Origin: Octopus sinensis
Lineage: Eukaryota
DNA: 64,000 bases
NCBI RefSeq assembly: GCF_006345805.1
Contig: NC_043008.1
Location: 78,616,001-78,680,000 of the forward strand
Direction of reading: 5' to 3'
Below the pieces are notes generated by a model. It worked only from the letters and a program-made list of their open reading frames with translations, searched no databases and had not been told where the DNA came from. Made by a program: the position numbers and the translations under genes. Positions within the stretch are counted from its first letter, which is position 1, and each line of letters starts with the position of its first letter. Below, piece by piece: positions 9,029 to 63,164 of the stretch.

Positions 9029-9217
9029 AATATGCTTCGACGCACAAACTCACATAAAGAATCTTGCAAACCAAATCCCAAAACAATATATATATTAATA
9101 AAAGGAATTCCAGCCTTGTCTGATTTTCACATTTTATTTACAATCTTATAATGATATAATATAGGATAATATAATATAATAAAATAAAATAATAGAATGT
9201 TAAATGTTCATTCTGAT

Positions 9218-9262
9218 TGAACTAGTACTTTCATGCATTAAATTATGCAATCTTCAGGTTCA
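9218..9262 (-). ncRNA. Minimal type I HHR in PLE-1 3' pLTR
   Basis: tgaac-CTGAAGA-ttgcat-aattta-atgcat-GAAAGTACTA-gttca. Palindromic stem III AGTACT. Confidence 0.85.
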
Positions 9263-11685
9263 TGTAGTAGTGGTGACAGTCATGCTTCACAATTTTTGAC
9301 TGTAGCAAGATGGTTAAATCTGTGCCTTAAATACACCTGTGTAGGCTCCAGATTGCTAAGTTTTGCAAACTGTATTCTGACCAATCAGTGTGTAGCATCA
9401 CTCAATTACTTAAGCTGATTGGTTTAGGCATCACACTTTGTTGAACATGTCAAGAGTCCTGTATCTTAACCCTGGCTGAGGCAGCAATTGTTGGGCTATT
9501 TTTAGAAATGTTGTGAATAGCCTTTGTCAGGGATTTTTATATTTCAATTGTCATCATCATCATTGTCAGCACCTTAATTATTGTTGCTAGTGGTGATGGT
9601 GGTGGCAATAGAACTTTTAACCCTAAATAAGATAATTTTCCTGCTATCTTCATCTTGATCACCTTTAGTATTGTTGTTGTTGTTAGTGGTCATGGTCGTA
9701 GCAGTAGAAGTAGTACCTCTAAGTATTATTATTATTGCTTATTTAGCTTGGGTTCGAATTTATCAATAAAATTCTTTTCTCTGATTTTCCTCTCGATTTC
9801 ACTTGGGCTGTGTAATTTGTAGAATGGAAATATTATATATATTTTCCAATCACATGTTGCTAGGTGGTTACTCAAAGGTATCTGACGGACCTCTGGGTTT
9901 CTAATCTGTTGTCGGTGTACACGTGAGCGTTCTGATAGTGCATTTCCTGTCTGACCTACATATATTTCTTCACAATTTGGGCATTTGATGCAGTAAATTA
10001 AATTTCTGCTTTTGCAGTTCATATTCGCGTTTGTGAATATTTTCCCGGTTTTTGTGTTTATATATTGGCCGGTATGTATGAATTGGCATGTGCCACTCGG
10101 CTATCATTGCATTTAGATACAGTGAATGTTTGGTCTTTGTTGCTAAGGTCAAATTTTGCCTTTGTTAGTAATTTTTTCAAGTTTTTACGCTGTCTTTTAC
10201 TAAGAATCATAGCTCGATCCGTGATTATATCTTTTAATTCATTACTTTGAGCAATGATTGGTAGGTTTGCTTTGGCAATGTTGAAGATATTCTGGTGACA
10301 TGAGTTGTGTGTCACTATGAATGGTATGACTTGTTCTTATTTTCCTCTTCCTTGGGTTGTCCTAAGTTGTTGTATGGGTATTTTTATAGCCCGCTGTATG
10401 CCATTTTCTATAAGTAGAGATGGGTATTTTTGTTTGAGCAAAAGTTCTGTTAGGTGTTTGTTCCTGATATTTGCATCTTCTACAATGGTACAAATTCTTC
10501 TGGCTAGGCAGTATGGGATGTTGCGTTTTGTATGTGATGGATGGCATGACTTAAAATTCAGGTATTGATGTGTGTCTGTGTGTTTATAGTATATATCTGT
10601 GGTGATGGTGGTGTCCTTTTTAATTACCATTATATCTAGGAATGGTAATTTGGTACTACTCATCTCCTTTGTAAATTGGAGAGATGGGTATAGGTTGTTC
10701 AGGAGGATATTGAACTCTTCCAGAGTATTTAGAGATTCTGTCCAGATTATGAAGCAGTCGTCAAGGTTCTAAATCCAGTGCTATAGTTTACCTTCACCTC
10801 TTGGTAGAGTTGTTGTTCTAAGTATCCCATTAGAGTTGGCGTAAATGGGAGCAAACCTCGTTCCCATCACTGTGCCTCTAATTTGGATGTAATTCTTTCC
10901 ATTGAAGAAGAATGTGTTGTTTTCTTGAATAAGTTTGACTGTGTCTAATATAAATGGCACTGTGAATCTGCTGGGAATCACTTCTCTATGTTTTTCTAAC
11001 CAGTATTTAGTCGCCTTTATTCCTAAATTGTGTGGAATATTGGTGTAGAGGCTTACCACATCAAAACTTAGTAAAACTGAATTTGTTTCTGTTGTTTTGG
11101 GAAGATGGGACAGGAAGTCGATGTCATCCCTGATGAAACTGGGTATGTAAGTACATAGTGGTTTCAAAACAATGTCAATAAAATTGCTTAGGGCATGCTG
11201 GACCAGTTATAATAGGTCTAAGTTTTAGGTCTTTTGGATGTAGTAATTTTATGTACTCACTTTCTTGTTCTTTTACTGCATGTTGAATATCTTTTGATTT
11301 ATGTATTTTCGGTAAGCCATAGAAATTGCTGGGTTTTGGTTCGAAATTGGTGATGTAGTCTCTTTCATTATCGGTAAGTGAGTTGTAGTGTTTTGAAATC
11401 AGGTTGTTGATCTTTTTCATGATGTGGCTATTCACAACATTTCTAAAAATAGCCCAACAATTGCTGCCTCAGCCAGGGTTAAGATACAGGACTCTTGACA
11501 TGTTCAACAAAGCGTGATGCCTAAACCAATCAGCTTAAGTAATTGAGTGATGCTACACACTGATTGGTCAGAATACAGTTTGCAAAACCTAGCAATCTGG
11601 AGCCTACACAGGTGTATTTAAGGCACAGATTTAACCATCTTGCTACAGTCAAAAATTGTGAAGCATGACTGTCACCACAACTACA

Positions 11686-11730
11686 TGAACCTGAAGATTG
11701 CATAATTTAATGCATGAAAGTACTAGTTCA
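11686..11730 (+). ncRNA. Minimal type I HHR in the inverted PLE-1 pLTR
   Basis: Reverse-complement copy of 9218-9262. Confidence 0.85.
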
Positions 11731-12510
11731 ATCAGAATGAACATTTAACATTCTATTATTTTATTTTATTATATTATATTATCCTATATTATATCATTAT
11801 AAGATTGTAAATAAAATGTGAAAATCAGACAAGGCTGGAATCCCTTTTATTAATATATTCTTCTATACACAATCACACACACCCGTATATATATATATCT
11901 ATATATATATATACATATATATATATATACATGACTCTATTATTTTTCTATTCTTTCATTCCTTCCTTCTTTCTAACAGGTCTTTCACACTTACTTCGTT
12001 TATTCCACTCTTCATTTTTTCGTTCCCCCTCTCTCACATTTCCTGGCCTTCTCTTTATGCTCACTTTCCCTCCTCTTTCACTTCACTCTGTCCCTTTCAT
12101 TTTTTTCTTGCCCCTCCTTAATTCTTCTATCCCTCTACCTCTACCTCTCTCTCATTTCTCCCCACGTGACCAGTGTTTGGCCAAGCCTGATCTTTCTTTC
12201 TTGGTTTGACTACCATCCGTGCGACATCTATATTCCTCCCTGTGTCAAACCCTATGTCCCTGCCATCTCTCTCTCTCTCTCTCTCTCTTTCTCAATATAT
12301 ATATATATATATATATATGCGTATATGGGTACAGGATGTCACCAACTGCAAACAACACGAAGTACGAAAACAAATTAGTGAAATATGCAAACAAAGAGAG
12401 AAAAAATGGAAAACAGGACAAGTAACACGAAGAATGACCCTTCATCAGTTGGCGGCTATCTATCTACTCCACATATATATGTATGTATCTGTGTATGTGT
12501 ATATATATAC

Positions 12511-13489: not shown

Positions 13490-14100
13490 AGTTAAAGTCT
13501 GGTCATAGAGTGACCAATGGTTTTGTATGGTTTCGTATCCAGGAAAGCTACAGCCTTGAGGACAGCTCATCAGACACTATACAAAAACAATTTTGACTTT
13601 TCACCTCGCAGAAGCAGAGAAACACTAGGACAATAATATAAAACGGCTAACAGAGAAAAAAGTTAATGAGGATGGGTTATCTCCCCTGGACCAGAGGTTA
13701 AATGGAAGCTAGTATTTATTTCATTAAACAGCAAACGGAAAGACCCAATGGTGTTTGTTCTGGGGTCGATGACATTAGAGCTAGTAATTGTGCTATTGTC
13801 ATTGCCTCCAGCGCCATTATTGTACATTGTTGATAATGTTGTTGCCAAGTCATAGTGTCACCATAGCCTTATAAATGACTCTTTCGGCCGTGCATCAGCC
13901 CCCTACTGGACAGTTATTGTACACCCTGCAAGAGCAACCTGCCTCTTCTCTTGGTTTGCAAGTGTTATTTAAAATACTTTTTATATTGGGTGCACAATTC
14001 AAGGAGACCCTTAGGTTGCACCTGTTGAATAAATGTCTGTATCTGTGTCTGTGTGTGAAATGTTTGTGGATTAATCTGTGAAATATCCTTCCCACACAAG
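13490..14100 (-). mobile_element. Decayed PLE 3' fragment (GIY-YIG region) with HHR at 13505-13580
   Basis: HRYRHLFNRCNLRVS..CSCRVYNNCPVGG resembles PLE-2. Downstream the minus strand reads atagtgt-CTGATGA-gctgtcc...ggatac-GAAACCA...TGGTC-actctat. Confidence 0.7.
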
Positions 14101-14236
14101 TCTTGACGCTGAATGAGAAGGGTGGGGCAAACCAAACGACATTTCAGCGGCACCTCCTTTTCTGGATGCTAGGGCCTGGCATGTACAAGATACTGTCCTT
14201 AAACACACTAGAGCTGAAATGTGTAAAAGACTAAAA

Positions 14237-20399: not shown

Positions 20400-21385
20400 A
20401 AACAAATCAAAAAGAAATTTAACAATTAAAGCATCAAAAAATCTGAATAAACCAATAATGAATAACCAAATAAAAGAATAAACAATATAAAATTGAAATA
20501 AGGGACAGTCATTGAGAACAGGGGTTGTCTGAAAGGAGTTTGAGTATGTAGAGTGAAATTGTAACGCTGTCCCAGGTGGAGCCTAGAGTAAAGGCCAAAG
20601 ACGGTCATATGTGAGATGGAGTAGGTGACCAACCAAAAATGATGGTCGACGTGTGCGTTCGTACGTAGATGAACATCTCGAAGATGTTCGGTGAACTGGT
20701 CAGCTAGCTGGCAGCCCATCTGACCAACATAAAGTTTGTTGCAGTGATTACAACCGATGCAGTAAATAACGCTGGAAGAAGTGCAGAAGAAGGAATTCCT
20801 AATGTAGAGGGTGTTCTGGTTGGGTCCAGTGAGAGAGGTGGTGTTAGTGATGAAGAGACAGGTGTGGCAACGGGATCTGAAGCAAAGAAAGAATCCAGGT
20901 GGGGCTAGAATGGAGGGGTAGCTATGGACCAGTAGATTGCATAGGTTATGGGTGCGTTTGAAGGAGGGCAAGGGTAGGTTGGGAAAAATAGGGAGGGTGG
21001 TGGGATTTAGTTGGAGGCGATGGAAGGCTCACAGGATCCTCTGACAAAGGGTTAGGGTGGAGGGATGGAAAAGAAGAGGAAAGGGGTGGCGTTTAGGGGA
21101 CTGGTGTGGGGAAGGATTTGACGAGCACGAGTAAAGCAATTTGGACAAGGGTTGATGAGTATCCATGATGCATGAACAAGCAGGCCAGGTACTGGGACTG
21201 GGTCTTGAAATCCTGGTTCTGACTGCACAGGCATTGGAGGCGGGGGAACTGGGAACAGGGGATGTCCCGTTTGGCGTGGGAGGGATGGGAGGAGGAAAAG
21301 TTGAGGTAGAGGTAAAAGTTTGCGGGTTTGAAGAAGGCAGAGGTGGTGAGAGAGTGGGAGAGGGATTCAATGGAGAGAGGACTTT
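20400..21385 (-). mobile_element. Decayed Penelope-like element (RT C-terminus + GIY-YIG)
   Basis: SSSHPSHAKRDIP in a shifted frame; CFRSRCHTC, FFCTSSSVIYCIGCNHCNKLYVGQMGCQLADQFTEHL. Confidence 0.75.
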
Positions 21386-21472
21386 TGAAATTTTTATATT
21401 TATTTACAATTTTTACATCAGTGTTTAAAGTTCAATTCCTTCTAAAAATTTGAAATGCTTTTATAACTAAGA

Positions 21473-27091: not shown

Positions 27092-27144
<53 letters not shown>

Positions 27145-27146
<2 letters not shown>

Positions 27147-28743
27147 ATAAAACGGTAAGATAACAAAAGAAAGAAAGAGACCTCAATATTATGTAAATAG
27201 AGGAAATTTATCTATACAATATGTTACATTACTCGGTAGTCAAGATAAAACTCTGAGTTTCAGATGCCGAAGTGGAAATCCACAACACCATCTCTTCGGT
27301 TATCTGGCTATTTGAAAACGTTATGAAAAAATACCGTTAAAAATGAAGGGAAATTACTCTGTTATAACTCTGCTTTGCCTGTGTACTTATACATCGCTCG
27401 CATTTTTCGTCATAAAAATTATATAAAAATACATAAAAAAAAATACATAAAAAAAAAATAAAAATATATAAAAATATATAAAATCTTCTTGGGACATTAC
27501 ACAGAAAGCATGTTCTATCCGTTTTCTTTAGGGGACCAAAAACGTAACAGAAATTTAGTCACATGTGGGCATGATCCGAAAAGCTCTGTCCTTGTATTTA
27601 GACATGTGGTAGGGTCTAAGCTGCTTTTCCAGATAAGCCATCTCTCCATGTCGCATAAACCGCACCTTCCGCTGCCGTTGGTATAGGGCTTACATCTGGC
27701 CAAAATCTTCCATTGTATGTTATAATCGACACCTTTATCTCTTAAAGACCAAATATGATTAGATAATTGTGTCGCTTTTCTTTTGTTCCAGTGCCTAAAG
27801 CTCAAAGTGTGGTTATTGAACCTGGCCTTGAAATTACCCTCTGTCAGGCCCACGTATTTCTTCGTCGAAACGGTGTCTTTAGTGGTTATAGAGTTTACGG
27901 TAGCTTCATATATGATGGTCTTGGACATGCAAGCTCCATTTAGCGGGCACAATTCTTTATTCCTGCATGAACAGCTGTTTTCTTCTTGTGTTTTTTGTAT
28001 GTTATGATTGATTATGTTTTTAAAATTGGTAGTTGAACTAAAACTAATTTTTAAATTGTGTCTATTAAAGAGTTTCCTATAAGCATGGTTAACTGGAAAA
28101 TGTCTATCTATCAGTGCTAGGAAATATTTACCTATATTGAAGGCCACCTCGGGTGAGTAAGGGCGGCGTAAACCAAAGAAAAGCGACACAATTATCCAAT
28201 CATATTTGGTCTTTAAGAGATAAAGGTGTCGATTATAACATACAATGGAAGATTTTGGCCAGATGTAAGCCCTATACCAACGGCAGCGGAAGGTGCGGTT
28301 TATGCGACATGGAGAGATGGCTTATCTGGAAAAGCAGCTTAGACCCTACCACATGTCTAAATACAAGGACAGAGCTTTTCGGATCATGCCCACATGTGAC
28401 TAAATTTCTGTTACGTTTTTGGTCCCCTAAAGAAAACGGATAGAACATGCTTTCTGTGTAATGTCCCAAGAAGATTTTATATATTTTTATATATTTTTAT
28501 ATATTTTTATGTATTTTTTTTTAATGTATTTTTATATAATTTTTATGACGAAAAATGCGAGCGATGTATAAGTACACAGGCAAAGCAGAGTTATAACAGA
28601 GTAATTTCCCTTCATTTTTAACGGTATTTTTTCATAACGTTTTCAAATAGCCAGATAACCAAAGAGATGGTGTTGTGGATTTCCACTTCGGCATCTGAAA
28701 CTCAGAGTTTTATCTTGACTACCGAGTAATGTAACATATTGTT

Positions 28744-28745
<2 letters not shown>
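27145..28745 (-). mobile_element. Penelope-like element 2 (GIY-YIG end), 5'-truncated, with ~570-bp inverted 3' end
   Basis: ORF 27515-28189: NIGKYF..LFNRHNLKISFS..CPLNGAC..IIYEATV..YVGLTEGNFKARFNNH..CGLCDME. ~28175-28745 is the reverse complement of ~27211-27785. HHR variants at 27243-27305 (-) and 28653-28715 (+). Confidence 0.92.
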
Positions 28746-28783
<38 letters not shown>

Positions 28784-31264: not shown

Positions 31265-31850
31265 ATGGGTGTAAGAAAGATTAAAAAGGATTTCAAAACG
31301 GCTTTCATTGCATGCCCCTGCCTACTTGAAGGTTCTGAATTTACTTTCAAACAAGGAATAAAGTTTAAAATCAAGACCAACTTCTTTCGTTCCTCCAAGA
31401 ACGTCCTTACATGCATAGGTTGCCAACACAATTATATCAGACGGACGAGCCTTCATTTACGCAGAAGAGAAAGAGTGAAAAACCTCATAAAAAATTATTT
31501 TCGAATTTTTTTCTTATGAGGTTTTTCACGCTAACTACCTGATAATTTCTTGTTAAGATTCCTTATCAAGATTTTATCCTTAATTGTTAAATTTATTCCG
31601 AAGAAAAACTTTTCCTACCGACATGCTGTTCGAAAGAGCCCGCCATTTACCGAATATATGATGAATAAACATTTCCATGTGCTTCGCCGAGGGGAGCAGA
31701 TGTCTGTTTGGCTTCGCTAGGTATGTTGGTTGTTTATTTATGATGTGTTCAGAATCTGTTCTACTGAAGAACAAAAGACGTATTTTGATACGTTAATTGT
31801 GAAATCACAGGTGATATAGAACTAAATTCAGTTTTTTAAACGTCTTGCTT
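31265..31850 (+). mobile_element. Decayed PLE fragment with intact HHR at 31758-31822
   Basis: CPCLLEGSEFTFKQGIKFKIKTNF..CIGCQHNYI resembles PLE-3. HHR reads gttcta-CTGAAGA-acaa...ttgt-GAAATCACAGGTGATA-tagaac. Confidence 0.7.
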
Positions 31851-32066: not shown

Positions 32067-32164
32067 CATATGCATATATATTCATATTTATATATACATA
32101 TATATGCATGTATATATATTCATATATATACATATATACAAATATAAATACATACAAATATATA

Positions 32165-32400
32165 TATACAAAAGAATGAAAGAGACCTCGATATTATGTA
32201 AACAGAAGAATTTATCTGTAAATATAATATGTGACAATTATTCGGTAGCCATGATAAAACTTTGAGTCTCGGATGTTGGGGCGGAAACCTATGCCGGCAT
32301 CTCTTCAGTTATCAGGCCATCGAAAAAAATGCTAAGAAAATGACCGTTAAACAAATGGAAATTACTGTGTGATTGACCATTATTAAGACAAAAGCGCTAT
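32165..32400 (-). mobile_element. Older relative of the PLE-2 3' terminus
   Basis: aaagagacctc.atattatgtaaa...tcggtag...gataaaact.tgagt matches 27170-27370. Confidence 0.65.
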
Positions 32401-34280: not shown

Positions 34281-35743
34281 TAATTAAACAATTATCAGTG
34301 TACCCTTTACATGGTGTCTTGCACGAGTACATCCTATGCGCCATTAAACGAGAATGCATTTTTCGTGGGTAGACAATTTGGCATCTACTTTCTGCATGTA
34401 AGGAAACCACTTTTTGGCTTTCCTCTTATATTTGAATATAATTTGCAGTCCTTGAACGTTTTTACGCATGCTGACCACTAGTATAAATAGTTATTTTTTT
34501 AAATAATAATTTTTACCCTTAGTACTTATTTTTTAAATATTTTAGTTCTTGAGTTGGGTAAGCCACTGCTGAATTTTATTCACTACTTATTTATTCTGGC
34601 TTGGCACGGTGGTTGAAAACATTTGAATTGAACACATGATGTATAATGGTAGAAATTTATATGCACGTGTGTCATTTCACAGAAAGGTTATATATTCGAG
34701 TTCTATTATGTGTTCCCAGTGGATTCCACTGAAGATCCACAGATAATTGTTTAATTATTGATGGTGAAACTTCGAAGTATGGAATTGACTGGACCTTTTA
34801 AAACTTTTCATAGTCTCTTGCACGAGTACATCCAACTCGCCGTTAAATGAGAATGTATTTTTCATGGGTAGACGATTTGGCATCTACTTTCTGCATGTAA
34901 GGAATTCACTTAGTTGCTTTCCTCTTATATTTGAATATAATTTGCAGTCCTTGGACGTTTTTTTATGCATGCTGGCTACTGATATAAATTGTTATTTTTT
35001 AATAATTTTTACCCTTAGTAATTATATGTAAATACATATATATAAGTACCACACAGCATTATCTACACACCCACATATAATCTTCAGCAGCGTCATCACA
35101 CATACCACTATATGAGCAGCCACACACTGTTTAACATAGTACACACACTACACACCATCATGCTCACACACACACCCACATAAGCACATAATACCTGAAC
35201 AAAGACAATATAAACTCTCTCACCCACACAAGCACATAATTCCTGAACGCAGGCTATATATACATACACAGGCAACACACATTAACATATGCAACATACA
35301 TAGACAAAAATAACTTTCGCCCACATACATACACTATAGACATGCACACTCTTTGGTCACAGATTCACACACTCACACACCACATGAAAAAGCATACATC
35401 AACTGCTACACGCAACACACACGTTACACACTCACACATGTTGGAGTCACTCAGCTTACATATTTGTATTTACATATAATTACTAAGGGTAAAAATAACA
35501 ATTTATATCAGTGGCCAGCATGCATAAAAAAACGTCCAAGGACTGCAAATTATATTCAAATATAAGAGGAAAGCCACTAAGTGATTTCCTTACATGCAGG
35601 AAGTAGATGGCAAATTGTCTACCCACGAAAAATGCATTCTCATTTAACGGCGTGTTGGATGTATTCATGCAAGAGACTATGAAAAGATATAAAAGGCCTA
35701 GTCAATTCCATACTTCGAAGTTTCACCATTAATAATTAAACAA
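34281..35743 (+). mobile_element. Retrozyme-like ~500-nt unit with partial tandem repeat and an inverted partner
   Basis: ~34317-34525 is repeated at ~34816-35020; ~35460-35743 is the reverse complement of ~34746-35035. Confidence 0.7.
34723..34785 (+). ncRNA. Type I hammerhead ribozyme, intact core
   Basis: attcca-CTGAAGA-tcca...tggt-GAAACTTCGAAGTA-tggaat. Perfect palindromic stem III ACTTCGAAGT, GUA site. Confidence 0.85.
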
Positions 35744-36069
35744 TACACACACACACACCCTCTCTTGCTGGGATCACTAGCACTACTATTATCGCTCTTT
35801 CATTCAATCTGTTTGTTTATTATCATCTCCCTTTCTTTCAACCTCTTTTTTTCCAATCTTTCTCCATGTTTGACTGCTGAACTCCACACATTTTTTTTTC
35901 CATTCTCTCTGATTATCTTCTCTTATTCCTTTCTGTTGAAGAGTGTAGGCTCAAAATGTAAAAGACTATTTCATTTTTCCTAAACTTCAAACTAATACAT
36001 TTACTTTTGTTCATACACCCATTTTCGACTTTTGTTTTTCTATAAATTTCAACTATATATATATATATA

Positions 36070-51463: not shown

Positions 51464-52237
51464 TAGAAATATATATATACATATATATACATATATATAT
51501 ACAAATATATATATACACACATATATATATACATATATATACATATATTAGAAAAAAATAAGGTACTCAGAAACCTGGATGGTTGTACATTTACAAATTT
51601 TTATTAATACGTCACATATTTTTATAAATCATATATTAACATTTGCATCTACTCTAGTAGATTCTTCAGGTTTGAATTTTTTGAGGGAATTCCTCTCTTG
51701 TTATAGTATTATTCAGTGTGTATGAATGGAAAGAGATATAGGATAGTAAAAGAGGGTGAGGAATGGGAAGAAAGTGAGAGAGAGAAAGAGTCTGTGTGTG
51801 TGTGTGTGTATCTGAATGGAGTGTCAATGGAAAAGAGAAGGAAAGAAAGAAGGAAGAGAGAAAGAAGAAAAAATATGTTTATGTCTATACAGTTGGTCAG
51901 TTCTTTCAATAGAAAGTGATGAGTTGATTCTTGGCCTTTAAAAATGGCAAAACCAGGGGCCTACTCTAAGGAAGGGGGGGGGGTCTTGTTTTGATAAAAG
52001 TTATTTTTTTTAAAAATTGTCTGGATTTATTATCATTGTCATCATCATTGTCCAGTGAGAGGGAGTGTGTGTGTGTTTTTCTTTTTTTGTGTGTGTGCCT
52101 GTGTATCTGAAAGTAGTGTCAATGGAAAAGTGAAGGAAAGAGAGAAGGAAGAAAGGAAGAAAAAAGTGTGTTTACATCTATACAGCTGTTCAGTTCTTTC
52201 AATAAATGACAAGTTGGTTAATAACTTTTGTATGTAT

Positions 52238-52285
<48 letters not shown>

Positions 52286-52583
52286 AAAATAGTAAAGAGT
52301 GAAAAAATGACAGAAGGCTTAAATGTTAAAAAATATATATATTTGCGTCAAAATGTCTGGAGAATATTGGAAAAATTTTTTTCCCCTCCTTAAAATGACA
52401 TAATTTTATAATTTTTAAAGAAATACCGGTTTCGCAGTTAGCTCTTCAAATTTCTTGTGACTTAATGTTTATTTTTAATAACGTAATCCTTGTATTTTTG
52501 CTACGGAGAGTTCTAAATAAGGGAAAGTAGTGAGTGATTTCTTCTGGTGTAAGGGAGATAATCGCTTAAAAACATTTTTTCCT

Positions 52584-53748
52584 TTAGTGTGAATTTCTCT
52601 GTATTATTGAGTTCGGATAGTTGAGTCTGGGTTTGTACTTTTCAATGAAGAATGTTTCCTTATTTAGTCTAATTTGTGATGATGATCCGAAAGCACATTG
52701 GTAAAATGGAAAGATTAAAAATTGTGGTTGTAGTTGCTTTGCGCATTTCTCAATGTGTTCACTAAAAGGTATCATTCTATATTCTGGGAATGCAATCTGT
52801 TGTCGATGCAGTGTGCATCTACGTCTGAGTGATAGTCCCGTGGACCCCACGTAGTCTTGGTGGCAGCCCGAGCATTTAATGACATAAATTATGTTTTCAG
52901 AGGCACAAGTAAAGTTAGATTTGATCTTGAATTTCTGTCCCTCTTTAAAGAAGAATTCTGATCCTTCCAATAGGTTAGGACATGTTGCACAGTTCGATCT
53001 ACCACATTTTTTTACTTTTGCATCCGTAATTTTAGAAGACAATTTTGCCTTTGTGAGAATCTTTTTAAGTGATTTAGGCTGTTTGTAGCTTTTAATGATT
53101 TGGTGTATGTTTAGAATTTCCTTTAATTTGGGGTTTTTATGAAGTATTGGTAAATTCTGGGTGATGATGGTGAAAGCTTCTTTGTTTCTGGGGTTGTATG
53201 TAGATATGTAAGGTAGTATTTTCGGGGAAGGTGTGTTGTTGTGTTGAACTTTTCTTAAAGTTTCTATGTTGATTTCTGTTGCACGTCTGATCCCATCCTC
53301 TATGAGTTGAGTTGGGTAATGTCTGTCAATTAAGGTGTTTTTGAGTTCTTGCAGTCTGAAGTTCCTGGTGTTTTGTTCTGACACTATTGTGCATATCCTT
53401 CTTGCAAGGTTGAAGGGGATGTTTGTTTTAGTGTGTCTTGGGTGGCATGAACTAAAAAGAAGGTATTGTTTGGCGTCTGTGGCTTTGTAGAAAATGTCTG
53501 TTTCTATTTTAAGGTTAATTTTTTTAATTAGTATATCCAAGAACGGGAGTTCCTTTTGGTTGTATTCCATTGTGAACTGTATATTTGGGTTTATGCTGTT
53601 CAATAGGTTTTTAAATTTTAAGAGTTTATCTGTGTTTTCATTCCAGAGAATAAAACAATCGTCCAAGAATCGTTTCCAGTTCTCTTTTATGTATTGAGAG
53701 AGGGGGTTTCCAAAGATTGATAAGGATTCCTGGTAAATGGTTATTTCC
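52584..53748 (-). CDS. PLE RT C-terminus + GIY-YIG endonuclease, uninterrupted but 5'-truncated (left arm)
   Basis: WKRFLDDCF, LPFLDILI, YLLFSSCHP, CGRSNCATC, IIYVIKCSGCHQDYVGST, EHIEKC. The N-terminal MIRIP is read from the opposite arm. Confidence 0.85.
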
Positions 53749-53750
53749 AT

Positions 53751-54897
53751 AGGAATCCTTATCAATCTTTGGAAACCCCCTCTCTCAATACATAAAAGAG
53801 AACTGGAAACGATTCTTGGACGATTGTTTTATTCTCTGGAATGAAAACACAGATAAACTCTTAAAATTTAAAAACCTATTGAACAGCATAAACCCAAATA
53901 TACAGTTCACAATGGAATACAACCAAAAGGAACTCCCGTTCTTGGATATACTAATTAAAAAAATTAACCTTAAAATAGAAACAGACATTTTCTACAAAGC
54001 CACAGACGCCAAACAATACCTTCTTTTTAGTTCATGCCACCCAAGACACACTAAAACAAACATCCCCTTCAACTTGCAAGAAGGATATGCACAATAGTGT
54101 CAGAACAAAACACCAGGAACTTCAGACTGCAAGAACTCAAAAACACCTTAATTGACAGACATTACCCAACTCAACTCATAGAGGATGGGATCAGACGTGC
54201 AACAGAAATCAACATAGAAACTTTAAGAAAAGTTCAACACAACAACACACCTTCCCCGAAAATACTACCTTACATATCTACATACAACCCCAGAAACAAA
54301 GAAGCTTTCACCATCATCACCCAGAATTTACCAATACTTCATAAAAACCCCAAATTAAAGGAAATTCTAAACATACACCAAATCATTAAAAGCTACAAAC
54401 AGCCTAAATCACTTAAAAAGATTCTCACAAAGGCAAAATTGTCTTCTAAAATTACGGATGCAAAAGTAAAAAAATGTGGTAGATCGAACTGTGCAACATG
54501 TCCTAACCTATTGGAAGGATCAGAATTCTTCTTTAAAGAGGGACAGAAATTCAAGATCAAATCTAACTTTACTTGTGCCTCTGAAAACATAATTTATGTC
54601 ATTAAATGCTCGGGCTGCCACCAAGACTACGTGGGGTCCACGGGACTATCACTCAGACGTAGATGCACACTGCATCAACAACAGATTGCATTCCCAGAAT
54701 ATAGAATGATACCTTTTAGTGAACACATTGAGAAATGCGCAAAGCAACTACAACCACAATTTTTAATCTTTCCATTTTACCAATGTGCTTTCGGATCATC
54801 ATCACAAATTAGACTAAATAAGGAAACATTCTTCATTGAAAAGTACAAACCCAGACTCAACTATCCGAACTCAATAATACAGAGAATTCACACTAAA
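53751..54897 (+). pseudogene. Mirror copy of the PLE-3 ORF with two 1-nt deletions
   Basis: Same peptide split into ORFs 53816-54097 and 54097-55005; frameshifts near 54073 and 54885. Confidence 0.8.
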
Positions 54898-55023
54898 GGA
54901 AAAAATGTTTTTAAGCGATTATCTCCCTTACACCAGAAGAAATCACTCACTACTTTCCCTTATTTAGAACTCTCCGTAGCAAAAATACAAGGATTACGTT
55001 ATTAAAAATAAACATTAAGTCAC

Positions 55024-55062
55024 AAGAAATTTGAAGAGCTAACTGCGAAACCGGTATTTCTT
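55024..55062 (+). ncRNA. Variant minimal HHR in the PLE-3 3' UTR (mirror at 52418-52456, minus)
   Basis: aagaaat-TTGAAGA-gc-taact-gc-GAAACCGGTA-tttctt; C3U core, palindromic ACCGGT. Confidence 0.55.
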
Positions 55063-55295
55063 TAAAAATTATAAAATTATGTCATTTTAAGGAGGGGAAA
55101 AAAATTTTTCCAATATTCTCCAGACATTTTGACGCAAATATATATATTTTTTAACATTTAAGCCTTCTGTCGTTTTTTCACTCTTTACTATTTTCTTATA
55201 TATTCACCCACGTGCTTTACCAAACAAACTTTCTTATCTATATATATATATATATATATACAGTGGTAAGATTGTAAATATATATGTATATACTA

Positions 55296-56670
55296 TCATC
55301 ATTTAACATCCGTTTTCCATACCAGCATGGATTGAACAGTTTGACAAGTTGACCAGCTGAAGGGCTGTTCAGGTTTCATGTCTTGTTTGGCATGGTTTCT
55401 ATGGTTGGATGCCCTTCCTAATACCAACCACTGTACAGAGTGTATTGGTTGCTATTACACAGCACTTATGAGCCCACAAGATTAGGGATGCTCTGCTGGA
55501 GATGGTTGCAAGGAATGAGCCTGGACACAAGGGCAACCACGCTTTTACTCAGCTTGGTGTGTCGTTTGTCCCACATCTTCCTGAGTCTACCCCTTCCACA
55601 TGTTCCTTCTACAATTAGAGATCAGTACCTCTTTATGCAATTGTTCTCACTCATATGCATTATATGGCCTTACCAGCGCAGTCTTCTCTCTTGCACACTA
55701 CATCAAATATTACATATACCTAGTTTTTCTCTCAAATCACTTATTTCTGTCATATGTGCACACTGACATCATCCATCCAGCAAAGCATACTGGCTTCATT
55801 TCTTTCAATTCTTCACATATCCTCAGTAGTCACAGCCCATGTAGCATAAATGTCTGTACACAAGCATCATACAACCTGCCTTTCACTCTGAGGAAGAGGC
55901 CCTTTGTTACCAACAGTAGTTCTCTGAACTTCGCCCAGCCTATTCTTATACTAGCAGCTATGCTTTTGGTACAACCACTCCACTACTAACTTGGTCACCC
56001 AAGTAACAGAAACTGTCTACTACTTTTAGGGATTCCACCTGCCATACAAAGGTGTTTATTTTTTTTAATTCCTGATGTTTAATGTACTTGTACATCTGCC
56101 ACAGGTAAAGATTACCCTCTCCATTAGTTGTCCAGTGATACCAATGCATCTCTTATGTGTCCATAGTTTGCACTGGGTACACCTAAGGGAGTTGCTCCCT
56201 GAAGGATTTTTTGATTTGTCTGTTTTCCAACTCATCAATACTTTGGTCTTTGCTACATTAACTCTAAGGCTTTGCTTCCATACCTGAAATTTCTTCTCTA
56301 GTTCTGGTAGTGATTCAGCAATAAGAACAAGGTTATCAGCATAGAGGAGCTCCCAGGGGTAGCCAATTGAATATTCTTCAGTTATAGCTTAGAGGACCAT
56401 GATCAATAAGAGGGGGATAATAACCAGCCCCTAGTGGACTCCTTGTACACTAAACTCCTTGCTATACTCATTGGTGACACTAACTTTACTAATGACATCC
56501 TTGTACATGGCTCGCACAGCTCTCACTAACTATTTATCTATCCCTAGCTGCTGCATTGTCCACCAGATAAGGGAGCAGGGAACCCTGTCAATGGTTTGCT
56601 CCATGTCAACAAAAGCCAGAAACAGAGGTTTATTTTTGGCCCAGTATATCTCCTGCAGTTACCTCACTGC
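55296..56670 (-). mobile_element. Older RTE LINE copy (RT to 3' tail)
   Basis: Decayed reverse-complement match to ~59490-61330 (ELLYADNL, VVDSFCYLGDQVS); (gat) tail at ~55296. Confidence 0.85.
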
Positions 56671-58308: not shown

Positions 58309-58679
58309 TGTGTATATGTATATATAAATGTATGTGTATTTTTTGTGTAGAAATAACACGGAAGAAAGAAATAAATAGTTACCAGTGTAGCAAAAATTCA
58401 CATAAGTGCCAAGGATGTTACAGCCTACTTATAAAGGCAGAAATTCCAGGGTTTAGTGAAATGTTTTTAAATAACATAGATATTAAGAAATGGAGTTAAA
58501 CACAGGAGTTATTCACATCTTTATACTTCCGACAAATGTTTTGAAGAAAACATTGGTATTATTCCTGAAGGAATAAAATGATGTAAAACAATGTAATCAT
58601 CTTATCAGGGGTAAAAGAGAAACAAAACACATCAATAAACCATTTTAACCGAATGTGATTATTGTATATATGATGGTTC

Positions 58680-60754
58680 TTACCACCAAGGTTACGTGGT
58701 GGTGGAACAGTGTTGTAGACAGGGCTATTAGAGAAAAGAGACAGACTTGGAAACACTGGAAGAATGGTGGTAGCAGGGAATTGTATCAGACTGCTAAAAG
58801 GGAAGCTAGGAGACAGGTGTATTTAGCCAGAGGGGAAGCAGATAAGAAAAAATTTGCCAATGTTCTGCGCCATGAGGACCAAAGACTGGTGTTTCGCGTT
58901 GCAAGACAGTGTGTGAGAGAGAATTGTGATGTGGTAGGAGAGAAGTGTGCTCGCATGGAAGATGGTTCCCTTGCGCTAAATGAGGATGCAAAGAGAGAGG
59001 TTTGGAGACGCCACTATGAAAGGTTGCTGAATAAAGAAAATGAATGGGATAAAGAGAGTCTGCCGAATGTCAACCCAACAGAGGGACCAGCTATCAGAGT
59101 TGATAGTTCCTTGGTAGTTAAGGCAATTAGAAGCATGAAGACAGGGAAAGCCCCAGGCCCATCAAGTATCACTGCAGAGATGTTCAAAATATCTGGTAGT
59201 GTCGGCTATAGCCTAGTCACCCGTATAGTTAATCAGGTGATACACAAAGAAGTCATACCCAATGACTGGTGTAGCAGCATAATAGTCAACTGCTACAAAG
59301 GTAAAGGTGACGCCCTAGATACAAATAATTACAGAGGTATCAAGCTGTTGGATCAGGTGATGAAGGTTACAGAGAGGATCATAGCCCAACTAATTAGAGA
59401 GAGAGTTAGTTTAGATGAGATGCAGTTTGGGTTCGTGCCAGGGAAAAGTACCACTGATGCTATATTCCTGGTAAGGCAGCTGCAGGAGAAATACCTAGCC
59501 AAAGATAAGCTCCTGTACCTGGCTTTTGTTGACATGGAGAAAGCCTTCGACAGGGTCCCCCAATCCCTCATCTGGTGGTCAATGAGGAAACTAGGGATAG
59601 ATGAATGGTTAGTGAGAGCTGTGCGAGCCATGTACAGGGACGCTGCTAGTAAGGTGAGGGTTGGAAACGAGTACAGTGAAGAATTCTGGGTAGAGGTTGG
59701 GGTCCACCAAGGCTCAGTCCTCAGCCCCCTCCTATTTATCATAGTCCTCCAGGCAATAACAGAGGAATTCAAGACAGGATGCCCCTGGGAGCTCCTCTAT
59801 GCTGATGACCTTGCTCTAATTGCTGAGTCACTATCAGAACTGGAGGAGAAGTTTCAGGTGTGGAAGCAAGGTTTAGAATCGAAGGGCCTTAGAGTCAATC
59901 TAGCTAAAACCAAAGTCGTAATAAGTAGGAAGGTAGACAAATCACAAACGCCTTCAGGTAGATGGCTCTGCTCAATCTGTAGAAAAGGTGTAGGTAGAAA
60001 CTCTATAAGATGCACCAAGTGTAAGCTATGGACACATAAGAGGTGCAGCAATGTCAAAGGAAGGCTAACTAGGAAGATGGTTTTTGTATGTGGCAAATGC
60101 TCGGGAGCATTAACCTCTGAAAATCTGCAGAAAACAACTTCCGTCACTTTCCAGGGGGAAAAACTAGAAGTAGTTGATAGCTTCCGTTATCTTGGTGACC
60201 AAGTCAGTTGTTGGGGTGGGTGTGCTGAAAGTGTAACTGCTAGAGTAAGAATAGCCTGGGCAAAGTTTAGGGAGCTCTTACCTCTGCTGGTGACTAAAGG
60301 CCTCTCGCTCAGAGTAAAAGGCAGACTGTATGATGCATGTGTACGAACAGCCATGCTACATGGCAGTGAAACATGGGCCGTGACTGCTGAGGACATGCGT
60401 AAGCTCACGAGAAATGAAGCCAGTATGCTCCGATGGATGTGTAATGTCAGTGTGCATGCTCGACAGAGCGTTAGTACCCTGAGAGAAATGTTGGACCTAA
60501 AGAGCATCAGTTGTGGTGTGCAAGAGAGACGATTGCGCTGGTATGGTCATGTGGCGAGAATGGATGAAGATAGGTGTGTGAAAAAGTGCCAATCCCTAGC
60601 AGTGGAGGGAACCCGTGGAAGAGGTAGACCCAGGAAAACTTGGGACGAGGTGGTGAAGCACGACCATCGAACTTTAGGTCTCACTGAGGAAATGACCAGC
60701 GACCGAGACCTTTGGAAATATGCTGTGCGTGAAAAGACCAGGCAGGACAAGTAA
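58680..60754 (+). CDS. RTE reverse transcriptase (partial) with internal PHD-like C4HC3 finger
   Basis: NYRGIKLL, MQFGFVPGKST, FVDMEKAFDRV, GVHQGSVLSPLLF, LYADD, CSIC..CTKC..HKRC..CGKC, FRYLG, RRLRWYGHV, RGRPRKTW. The listed start at 58655 lies in the flanking PLE arm. Confidence 0.9.
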
Positions 60755-61330
60755 GTCCAGCCCACTTATGCATGCCTTTCCTCCCTTGGACACACAAAGA
60801 CCTGTTGAGGCAAGCAAAGTCAATATCGAACCTCATCCGACGACAGGTCTTGCTTGTGAAGACCTGTTGGGGCAAGTGAAATCGGAATCGAAATTGAACC
60901 AATCCTATGACTGGCACCCGGCAGATGCCAGGACCCCTGGACTGGAGATATGTAAAAAGCACTATCCGAATCGTGGCCGATGCCAGCACCGCCTTGACTG
61001 GCTTCCATGTCGGTGGCACGTAAAAACCATCATCCGCATCGTGGCCGAAGCCAGTGCCGCCTCGACTGGCTTCCGTGCAGGTGGCACGTAAAATGCACCA
61101 ATCCGACCGTGGCCAATGCCAGCCTCGCCTGGCACCAGTGCAGGTGGCATGTAAAAAGCACCCACTACACTCACGGAGTGGTTGGCGTTAGGAAGGGCAT
61201 CCAGCTGTAGAAACATTGCCAGATAAGACCGGAGCCTGGTGCAGCCTTCTGGCTTCCCAGATCCCCGGTCGAACCGTCCACCCATGCTAGTATGGAGATC
61301 AGACATTAAATGATGATGATGATGATGATG
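58680..61330 (+). mobile_element. Young 5'-truncated RTE-clade LINE
   Basis: Uninterrupted RT ORF, 3' UTR with ~68-nt tandem units (~60952-61160), (GAT)n tail; no APE domain retained. Confidence 0.92.
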
Positions 61331-61613
61331 GAAATGAAATGTAAGAAGACAGATAAGAGTTGAATTTTATAGGTTGGTAGAAACTATTTATAGGTACTAA
61401 ATGTATGCTTTTGCCAATGTTTGTAACAATAAACGATAAATTATCAACAATTAATTATCAGTTCACACCGAATTAGAATATAGTTTTCAAGCACCAAAAA
61501 CCTTTCATAAATCATCTCATCACATAACAATAAGTTGTTAAATACAAATCCACTTAATGAAATTAATAACATTGATATTAACATTAACCATTCTTTGAAC
61601 AATAATAACAATA

Positions 61614-62037
61614 CAGTTCTATATTTAAAAGATCAGGAATTATGTACATTATTTACATTATTTATAGTTGACGGATATTTCTCTTCATCTTGTTTGTTGT
61701 TAACACAATGTTTCAGCTGATATACCCTCCAGCCTTCATCAGGTGTTTTGGGAAAATTTTGAACCTGGGTTCTCATTCCTATGGTATTTTTTGATGTTAT
61801 TGTTATTATTATTATTATATTATTATTATTATTAAGGTCACTGCCTAGAATTGAACTCAGAATCTTGGGGTTAGTAGCCCGTACTCTTAACCACTACACC
61901 ATATGCCCAAGAGAGCCCAAGTTCAAAATTTCCCCAAGACACCTGATGAAGGCTGGAAGATATATCAGCTGAAACGTTGTGTTAACAACAAACAAGATGA
62001 GGACAAATATCCATCAAAAATAAATAATGTAAATAAT
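61614..62037 (-). mobile_element. tRNA-headed SINE with HHR tail and inverted 3'-end copy
   Basis: tRNA-like head 61908-61836 (TGGTGTAGTGG A box, GAGTTCAATTC B box), (TAA)n, HHR at 61746-61703. 61911-62037 is the reverse complement of 61648-61774. Confidence 0.75.
61939..61982 (+). ncRNA. Minimal type I HHR
   Basis: acac-CTGATGA-aggctg...cagct-GAAACGTT-gtgt; palindromic AACGTT stem III. Confidence 0.8.
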
Positions 62038-63164
62038 AACGATATTAGTATTTCTGATATAAATTTCAATCACATTCATTTCCTTAGCAGTAGTTCTAAG
62101 ACTAGAAACTCTATTTATCAATGTAAAATTACTTCCCGTTCTGATGTCTTTTTTTTACATAGGTAAAACATCTCAGTTGTCCAAAACAATATCTAACCAT
62201 TACTCTACATTTAGACATATCAATAAATGCAGCAATACTGGGCTTAGTAAATTAATTTGGTCTCTTAAGGAACATAATAAACAACTTGATTTGGAATGGA
62301 ATATTCTATCTAGATCCTTTCTGTATGATAAAGGTAAATCTTTTTGTCCGCTCTGTAACGAAGAACAGTATCTCATTTTGTTCTCAGAGAATTCTCTTGT
62401 AAACATGTTTAAAGAACATGTTTATTATTGCAAACATTGACAAAAACATACCTTTAGTTCCTATAAGTAATTTCTATCAAGCTATAAAATTTGACTTTTA
62501 TCTGTCTTCTTACATTTTATTTCCACTACATATATCTATTTACATGCTTTATTTCCACTCATCTTTATTTCCACTCATCTATCGCATTATATTTATCCAC
62601 TCTTAATTTTCCATTAATTTCTTTCTTTCTCCTCTTTTTCTTTCTCCAAATTGCCTTTGACATTAAATCTATTAACAGTTTTTTAAGAAATAACTGGCCA
62701 ATGTTCCCTTCATCATATACGCGGTAATCACATTCGGTTAAAATGGTTTATTGATGTGTTTTGTTTCTCTTTTTTCCCTGATCAGATGATTACATTGTTT
62801 TACATCATTTTATTCCCTCAGGAATAATACCAAGGTTTTCTTCGAAACATGTGTGGGAAGAATAAAAATTTGAATAGCACCTATGTTTAACTCCATTTTT
62901 AGATTTGTGTGTGTGTGTGGTGTCCCAGCATGGCCACAGCCTTAGCACTAAAATGCTTAAAAGACTATTGATCTGGGTAGTGTGCATAATATAATCGTTC
63001 TGGTTAGTATGTATGTATATATATATATGATACACATTATGTACAAGACATCACCAACAAGTGAAAAATACGTAAACACACACACATATACACATGCACA
63101 CATATATGTAGATAGACATACACATTTAGGGAACTATGGTTAACAATCAATTTCTCTAACACCT

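Follow-up and report, generated by a model that had tools for sequence, protein, structure and literature searches.

Structure of the locus

The insert described here, together with the TA tracts at its ends, lies between positions 52231 and 55203 of the window, i.e. the whole stretch of 64,000 nucleotides of Octopus sinensis DNA that was analysed. Two 5'-truncated copies of one Penelope-like element (PLE) make it up, lying head to head at a (TA)n site; Table 1 lists its features. An earlier note on this DNA had described a near-perfect 2.9-kb palindrome with ~1450-bp arms differing by two 1-nt deletions and two substitutions, and pairwise alignment agreed with this description. The arms (52277-53731 and 53751-55203, each including 7 nt of TA at the outer end) share 99.7% identity over ~1,450 bp, which is far too unlikely for a chance match, and are separated by a spacer of 19 nt (53732-53750). 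There are exactly two substitutions, at 52308/55172 and 52804/54677, and exactly two 1-nt deletions, both located in short homopolymers of the right arm, opposite 52594 and 53408. An open frame of 388 codons is formed by the left arm together with the spacer (53750-52587, minus strand); the frame of the right arm is broken by two frameshifts.

Table 1. Features of the PLE insert (positions refer to the window)
Feature	Position	Strand	Remarks
(TA)n tract	52231..52283	.	Left junction; TRF period 2, 27 copies; adjoins element 3' end at 52284
Left arm	52284..53731	-	5'-truncated PLE copy with intact frame: RT DD motif, thumb, Cys linker, GIY-YIG domain, 300-nt 3' UTR
ORF remnant	52584..53749	-	388 codons; FLDD at 53669-53658; CX4CxxC linker at 53006-52980; GIY-YIG-type core with CxxC at 52889-52845; His at about 52808 and 52757
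Native spacer part	53732..53749	-	Codes E-I-T-I-Y; 7-bp bulged hairpin with T53731, + (cDNA) strand
Extra junction bases	53750..53751	+	2 nt beyond a clean snap-back product, from register comparison and Met in 0 of 186 homologues
Right arm	53751..55196	+	Inverted 5'-truncated copy, two 1-nt deletions
Minimal hammerhead-like motif	55031..55056	+	Pattern scan; mirror copy at about 52449-52424, minus strand
Short TA run	55197..55203	.	Right junction, followed by a flank unlike the left flank

As the earlier note had proposed, both outer ends of the insert are element 3' ends (52284 and 55196). The symmetry stops at the 3' end of the element on either side, and the left and right flanks are unlike each other. 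The (TA)n tract on the left is likely the target microsatellite. Lacking the RT's N-terminal half, the insert is a dead copy. A function for the host is not evident in such a single copy, and we propose none.

Identity of the element

Among longer proteins, the best match of the ORF remnant was a full-length protein of about 750 aa (P0001), with 59% identity over 97% of the query, and a relative with an upstream RT (P0120) was 75% identical. In all, 118 longer homologues of about 680-1,100 aa were found, most of them annotated with RT and/or GIY-YIG families, and a protein search at similar length retrieved a family member with 97% identity. The closest named match was a protein of O. sinensis (78-79% identical), and Argonauta proteins were also present among the matches. 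Pfam returned no matches at 0.001; at a relaxed threshold the GIY-YIG match of the remnant had E=0.008, i.e. below the cut-off, and matches to SIR2 and cytochrome families at the same relaxed threshold were rejected as noise. The interpretation of the insert as a MITE or a DNA transposon was likewise rejected, because the arms are retroelement coding sequence.

The order of the domains, a DD motif followed by a GIY-YIG-type core, is that of the ORF of EN+ PLEs (RT with C-terminal GIY-YIG). The CCHH motif is present, with the CxxC within residues 288-302 and His at 315 and 332; over 18 sequences C293, C296 and H315 are invariant and H332 nearly so. The linker CX4CxxC (residues 249-257), whose three Cys are invariant over 18 sequences, falls within the CX2-5CxxC pattern of Neptune and Nematis. 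Since the GIY-YIG domain lies C-terminal of the RT motifs, the layout is not the Naiad/Chlamys one, with its N-terminal EN. The domain order RT then GIY-YIG with a Cys linker has been assigned to the Neptune and Nematis clades, and a (TA)n target bias has been tied to the Cys linker in Neptune (PMC8557442). The Penelope identity given in the earlier note is thus upheld by the homologues together with the DD motif, linker and GIY-YIG-type core in that order. Judged from its sequence, the insert is the 3' half of a predicted RT + GIY-YIG PLE with a Neptune/Nematis-type linker, by which it may belong to either clade. The inverted copy corresponds to the pLTR arrangement of tandem or inverted 5'-truncated copies, and no direct tandem copy was present in the window. 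A one-sided tail of 30-40 bp, a feature treated as optional in the papers, is absent from the insert, both arms ending at the same element base.

It should be noted that some of the PLE proteins (L040-L042, P0024, P0026 and P0141) are filed under bacterial genomes or symbionts. They are likely host-animal contamination of metagenome-assembled genomes.

The 3' UTR contains a minimal hammerhead-like motif, in which U3 is combined with G8 and only 1 bp of stem II is evident; its MFE fold differs from a hammerhead, and Rfam gave no matches in the whole window, this motif included. In most of the family depth U3 is combined with A8 (position 55036), in three of four runs, and the hammerhead-like pattern was found in 7 of 42 related loci. 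Minimal hammerheads of PLEs, including a U3-A8 variant and motifs located 100-700 bp apart on opposite strands, have been described (PMC4209133).

Spacer and junction

The earlier note had taken the whole 19-nt spacer as a continuation of the native ORF. This stands for 18 nt: the encoded E-I-T-I-Y agrees with the sequences LEITLYQK and LEIIIYQE of the two closest relatives that cover the spacer (P0120 and P0239, respectively). The outermost codon of the spacer reads Met, a residue found in none of 186 homologues (Leu in 168 of them), which indicates that T53750 is probably not native; the native sequence would then end at 53749, giving a native spacer of 18 nt rather than 19.

The segment 53731-53749 folds at -1.7 kcal/mol into a weak hairpin closing exactly on the last arm base. 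In post hoc tests, an equally stable closing was found in 3 of 1,447 stretches of this length taken from the element, or in 30 of 1,435 when both ends were allowed to slip by 2 nt, and a 3'-anchored hairpin of this stability was found at 23 of 1,440 possible 3' ends; 28 of 200 shuffles of the spacer 19-mer folded as well, and the hairpin is not unusual with respect to its own shuffles. The proposed hairpin pairs T53731 with A53749. Because the arms are in the register T53731:A53751, and not T53731:A53749, two nucleotides must have been added or re-copied, and the bases 53750-53751 are likely the result of untemplated addition or slippage. The hairpin noticed earlier at the centre is therefore retained as a 3'-anchored structure in the right register and uncommon along the element, but a clean snap-back would have left a junction shorter by 2 nt. 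A longer, perfect native hairpin, using Gly-Phe-Leu-Glu codons, was dropped because the two closest relatives read Gly-Tyr-Leu-Glu. A search of metagenome and genome contigs for native family DNA across the junction or upstream of 53749 gave no matches.

The family and the template of the arms

Contigs, not raw reads, from four runs (three organism labels) were compared over 53690-56500. The matches listed were 32 of about 75,300 pieces, 15 of 267 joints, 24 of 2,464 loose ends and 40 of 70 difference rows. No piece, joint or loose end at the centre or the right junction was among the matches listed for the four runs, and none of the 24 of 2,464 loose ends listed lay upstream of 53749. The flank pieces from 55269 on occur in public DNA contigs without differences. 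The C missing from the right arm at 54072 is carried by family contigs at 50-81% of the depth in all four runs, and the A missing near 54884 is carried by them in two of the four. Summed contig depth over the arm, which is not a copy number, was very high in all the runs and rose towards the 3' end; this pattern fits a high-copy, often 5'-truncated family.

The family contigs differ from the right arm at at least 28 coding positions (40 of 70 rows listed), and at 27 of the 28 listed both arms carry the same letter. Therefore, both arms come from one template lineage. The 28th position is an arm-specific CpG loss, changing Arg to Gln. As many as 19 of the 27 shared differences are synonymous, compared with an expected 20-27% (p<1e-5), and because of this excess the shared differences must have arisen under selection in the transposing lineage and not after insertion. 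Gene conversion from arm to arm was rejected as the source of the shared variants for the same reason, i.e. they are mostly synonymous. The family behind the palindrome is thus under purifying selection and may still be active, as the earlier note presumed.

Both substitutions between the arms are of the CpG type; with 22 CpGs in the arm, the probability of this by chance is about 1-4e-4, a post hoc figure. At 54677 the family letter is G in all four runs and matches the left arm. The position 55172 is absent from the 40 of 70 rows listed, which suggests that there the left arm is the derived one.

Neighbouring elements in the window

Two more PLE insertions in the window are arranged head to head. 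The one at 9090-11858 has arms of 433 nt with 4 substitutions and a spacer of 1,903 nt, and its protein is 42-47% identical. It is of the linker type and on the minus strand, with a broken ORF comprising most of the RT and the EN and an inverted 3' segment at the 5' truncation; a hammerhead-like pattern lies within its arm. The other, at about 27144-28751, covers the EN region on the minus strand and is located between TA tracts, with arms of 572 nt and a spacer of 383 nt. It carries a one-sided 3' extension of roughly 55-70 nt, whose recurrence at 32.2 kb shows that it belongs to the element. The overlap at the junction near 28171 is imperfect, with 4 of 5 pairs formed across what is likely a native Trp codon. 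The head-to-head layout is thus routine in the window, and the palindrome is its short-spacer extreme; judged by arm identity, it is the youngest of the three inverted PLE pairs.

Several other repeats were observed. Fragments related to the insertion at 27144-28751 occur at 13859-14122, 32160-32375 and 62156-62377, and decayed protein fragments of linker-type PLEs were detected by tblastn at 20648-21431 and 31277-31567. Older inverted pairs, with arms of 140-300 nt that are about 88-91% identical, are located at 34746-35744, 58484-62901 and 61648-62037. At 1721-2650 a SINE-like repeat of 446 nt, with TA tracts, is duplicated in tandem almost perfectly; further copies of it are present at 12.6-13.4 kb and 57.9-58.3 kb.

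Outside the window, inverted repeats were found in 4 of 42 related loci, none of them tied to an arm of the element; the contigs are short, so a blank says little. Short-spacer palindromes that do not match the PLE ORF were observed near PLE relatives (L019:2704-2956, L037:3553-3768, L017:119-183 and L036:278-344), and are possibly other fold-back elements.

Origin of the palindrome

We consider the chances to be about even that a single integration produced the whole insert: the first-strand cDNA would have turned back on itself at a short hairpin and so supplied the primer for the second strand. As suggested by PLE biology, the GIY-YIG domain would nick AT-rich DNA, and on the left target end the RT would start the cDNA from the 3' end of the element. 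Native sequence breaks off at 53749, about 1,465 nt from that end and within the RT region, and cDNA synthesis would have ended there. The last 7 bases of the cDNA, which in the computed hairpin pair with 53731-53739, could then have served as the primer; after about 2 added or slipped bases, extension from T53731 would copy the whole cDNA up to the element 3' end. The new end would be joined to the right target end via TA microhomology, and each arm would later have lost one CpG. Copy-back is favoured because the spacer is native on one strand only, because the last arm base is precisely where the hairpin closes, and because both arms derive from one template lineage. The self-priming put forward in the earlier note is the model already present in PMC3846280, where junction palindromes were reported and self-priming on the antisense strand was inferred in 2013. 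At the present locus this model gains from the native spacer, the 3'-anchored hairpin and the outermost position of the 3' ends, but a clean snap-back leaves 2 nt unexplained, so that an extra step is needed, and two annealed cDNAs would give the same sequence: the same bases could anneal between two separately primed cDNAs, and sequence alone does not tell fold-back from annealing.

In the case of two cDNAs, the PLE would nick both target strands, and two cDNAs started from the element 3' end would stall close to each other, anneal via the same short complementarity and be filled in, so that both outer ends would be primed 3' ends without a final jump. We regard such dual priming as possible, if somewhat doubtful. 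In vitro, an anole PLE cuts both strands of its target and extends each of them; it is a predicted dimer, with two RT start sites delimiting the one-sided tail (PMC11167929). The one-sided 3' tail of the insertion at 27.1-28.8 kb, shared with the copy at 32.2 kb, fits two priming sites better than copy-back. For the palindrome, however, dual priming would require two truncations within 19 nt in an element of roughly 3 kb, unless there is a shared stall site, as well as two RNAs of the same subfamily, and the insertion is without a tail at either end.

It is unlikely that the palindrome is a sequencing or assembly artefact, in which a fold-back read of one copy was bridged to a near-identical copy elsewhere. 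Fold-back reads do account for about 0.55-0.6% of ONT genomic reads, often without adapter sequence (PMC12870357); each of the two indels is a deletion in a homopolymer of the right arm, the pattern that long-read errors would give, and may be a consensus error; and the matches listed included no contig across the centre or either junction. On the other hand, the flanks are not mirrored, the symmetry ending at the element 3' end on both sides, the two substitutions are both of the CpG type and apparently one per arm, and the layout recurs in two further PLE copies of the window, whose spacers are long and whose arms have diverged. The palindrome is likely a real locus, considering that both substitutions are CpG losses and that the flanks differ. 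Repair by the host, i.e. snap-back synthesis that mended a break in a longer inserted copy and thereby added its 3' half a second time in inverted orientation, appears very unlikely. The 2-nt insertion at the junction would fit end joining, in which insertions of this size are common, but snap-back synthesis would have no reason to stop at the element 3' end, and the layout is common to three PLE insertions in 64 kb.

Age and persistence

Two substitutions over 1,453 bp, at the rate of 2.4e-9 per site per generation used in PMC13669787, correspond to an age of about 290,000 generations (95% Poisson range 35,000-1,040,000). This clock is void if the arms came from two RNAs. In addition, CpG sites may mutate faster, which would lower the estimate. 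The divergence of the arms suggests tens of thousands of generations or more, and the very recent event of the earlier note is not borne out, the two CpG-type differences between the arms suggesting ageing in place.

Long palindromes with short spacers are fragile in yeast and mammalian cells (PMC7999016), and our literature search found no report of the persistence of long palindromes in germlines. If the locus is real and old, a kb-scale, short-spacer palindrome can persist in a mollusc germline, and this persistence would be mildly notable. We advance only tentatively the wider proposal that a PLE snap-back palindrome with 1.45-kb arms and a 19-nt spacer survived 10^4-10^6 generations in the octopus germline without central deletion, and that octopus PLE insertions, three of which are head to head in 64 kb, give rise to long palindromes on a genome scale, with junctions that would allow copy-back to be distinguished directly from dual priming. 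The locus offers a clean junction, with a native spacer, a hairpin in register and two extra bases. A single junction does not decide between the models, but a long-read assembly with a high-copy family would contain many of them.

Comparison with known systems

The surprise implied in the earlier note is low, considering that an inverted 5'-truncated copy is a standard feature of PLEs (PMC8557442), that self-priming was proposed in 2013 (PMC3846280), and that two more such insertions are present in the window. In vitro work on how PLEs make inverted structures has been called for (PMC8557442). In the literature searched, mostly open-access papers, no kb-scale PLE palindromes in octopus were listed; subscription papers and older PLE reviews may show equally long inverted copies.

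With the canonical EN+ PLE insertions, as far as they are described in PMC8557442 and PMC3846280, the insert shares the RT followed by a C-terminal GIY-YIG, the 5' truncation, the microsatellite target, an inverted copy placed 5', which leaves a 3' end on either outer side, and the small palindrome at the inverted junction; a candidate hammerhead-like motif likewise lies near its 3' end. It differs from them in the length of its inverted copy, which at 1.45 kb almost equals the direct copy, and in its spacer of 19 nt, whereas the inverted repeats in the Adineta examples of these papers are about 180-220 bp; in addition, it has neither a direct pLTR tandem nor a one-sided tail. The CX2-5CxxC linker between RT and endonuclease and the (TA)n target are shared with Neptune (or Nematis) PLEs (PMC8557442). 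Long-read fold-back artefacts (PMC12870357) are similar in being near-perfect palindromes whose turn holds hardly any foreign sequence or none, but they mirror the flank too, while the flanks of the palindrome differ and its arms differ at CpG sites.

Only the arm length and the short spacer stand out, layout and mechanism having already been described. As in the palindrome, twin priming of L1 leaves an inverted segment at the 5' end of the retrotransposon insertion, with microhomology at the junction. In L1, however, the inverted segment stems from another part of the RNA, lying further upstream, whereas in the palindrome it is the 3' part that is duplicated.
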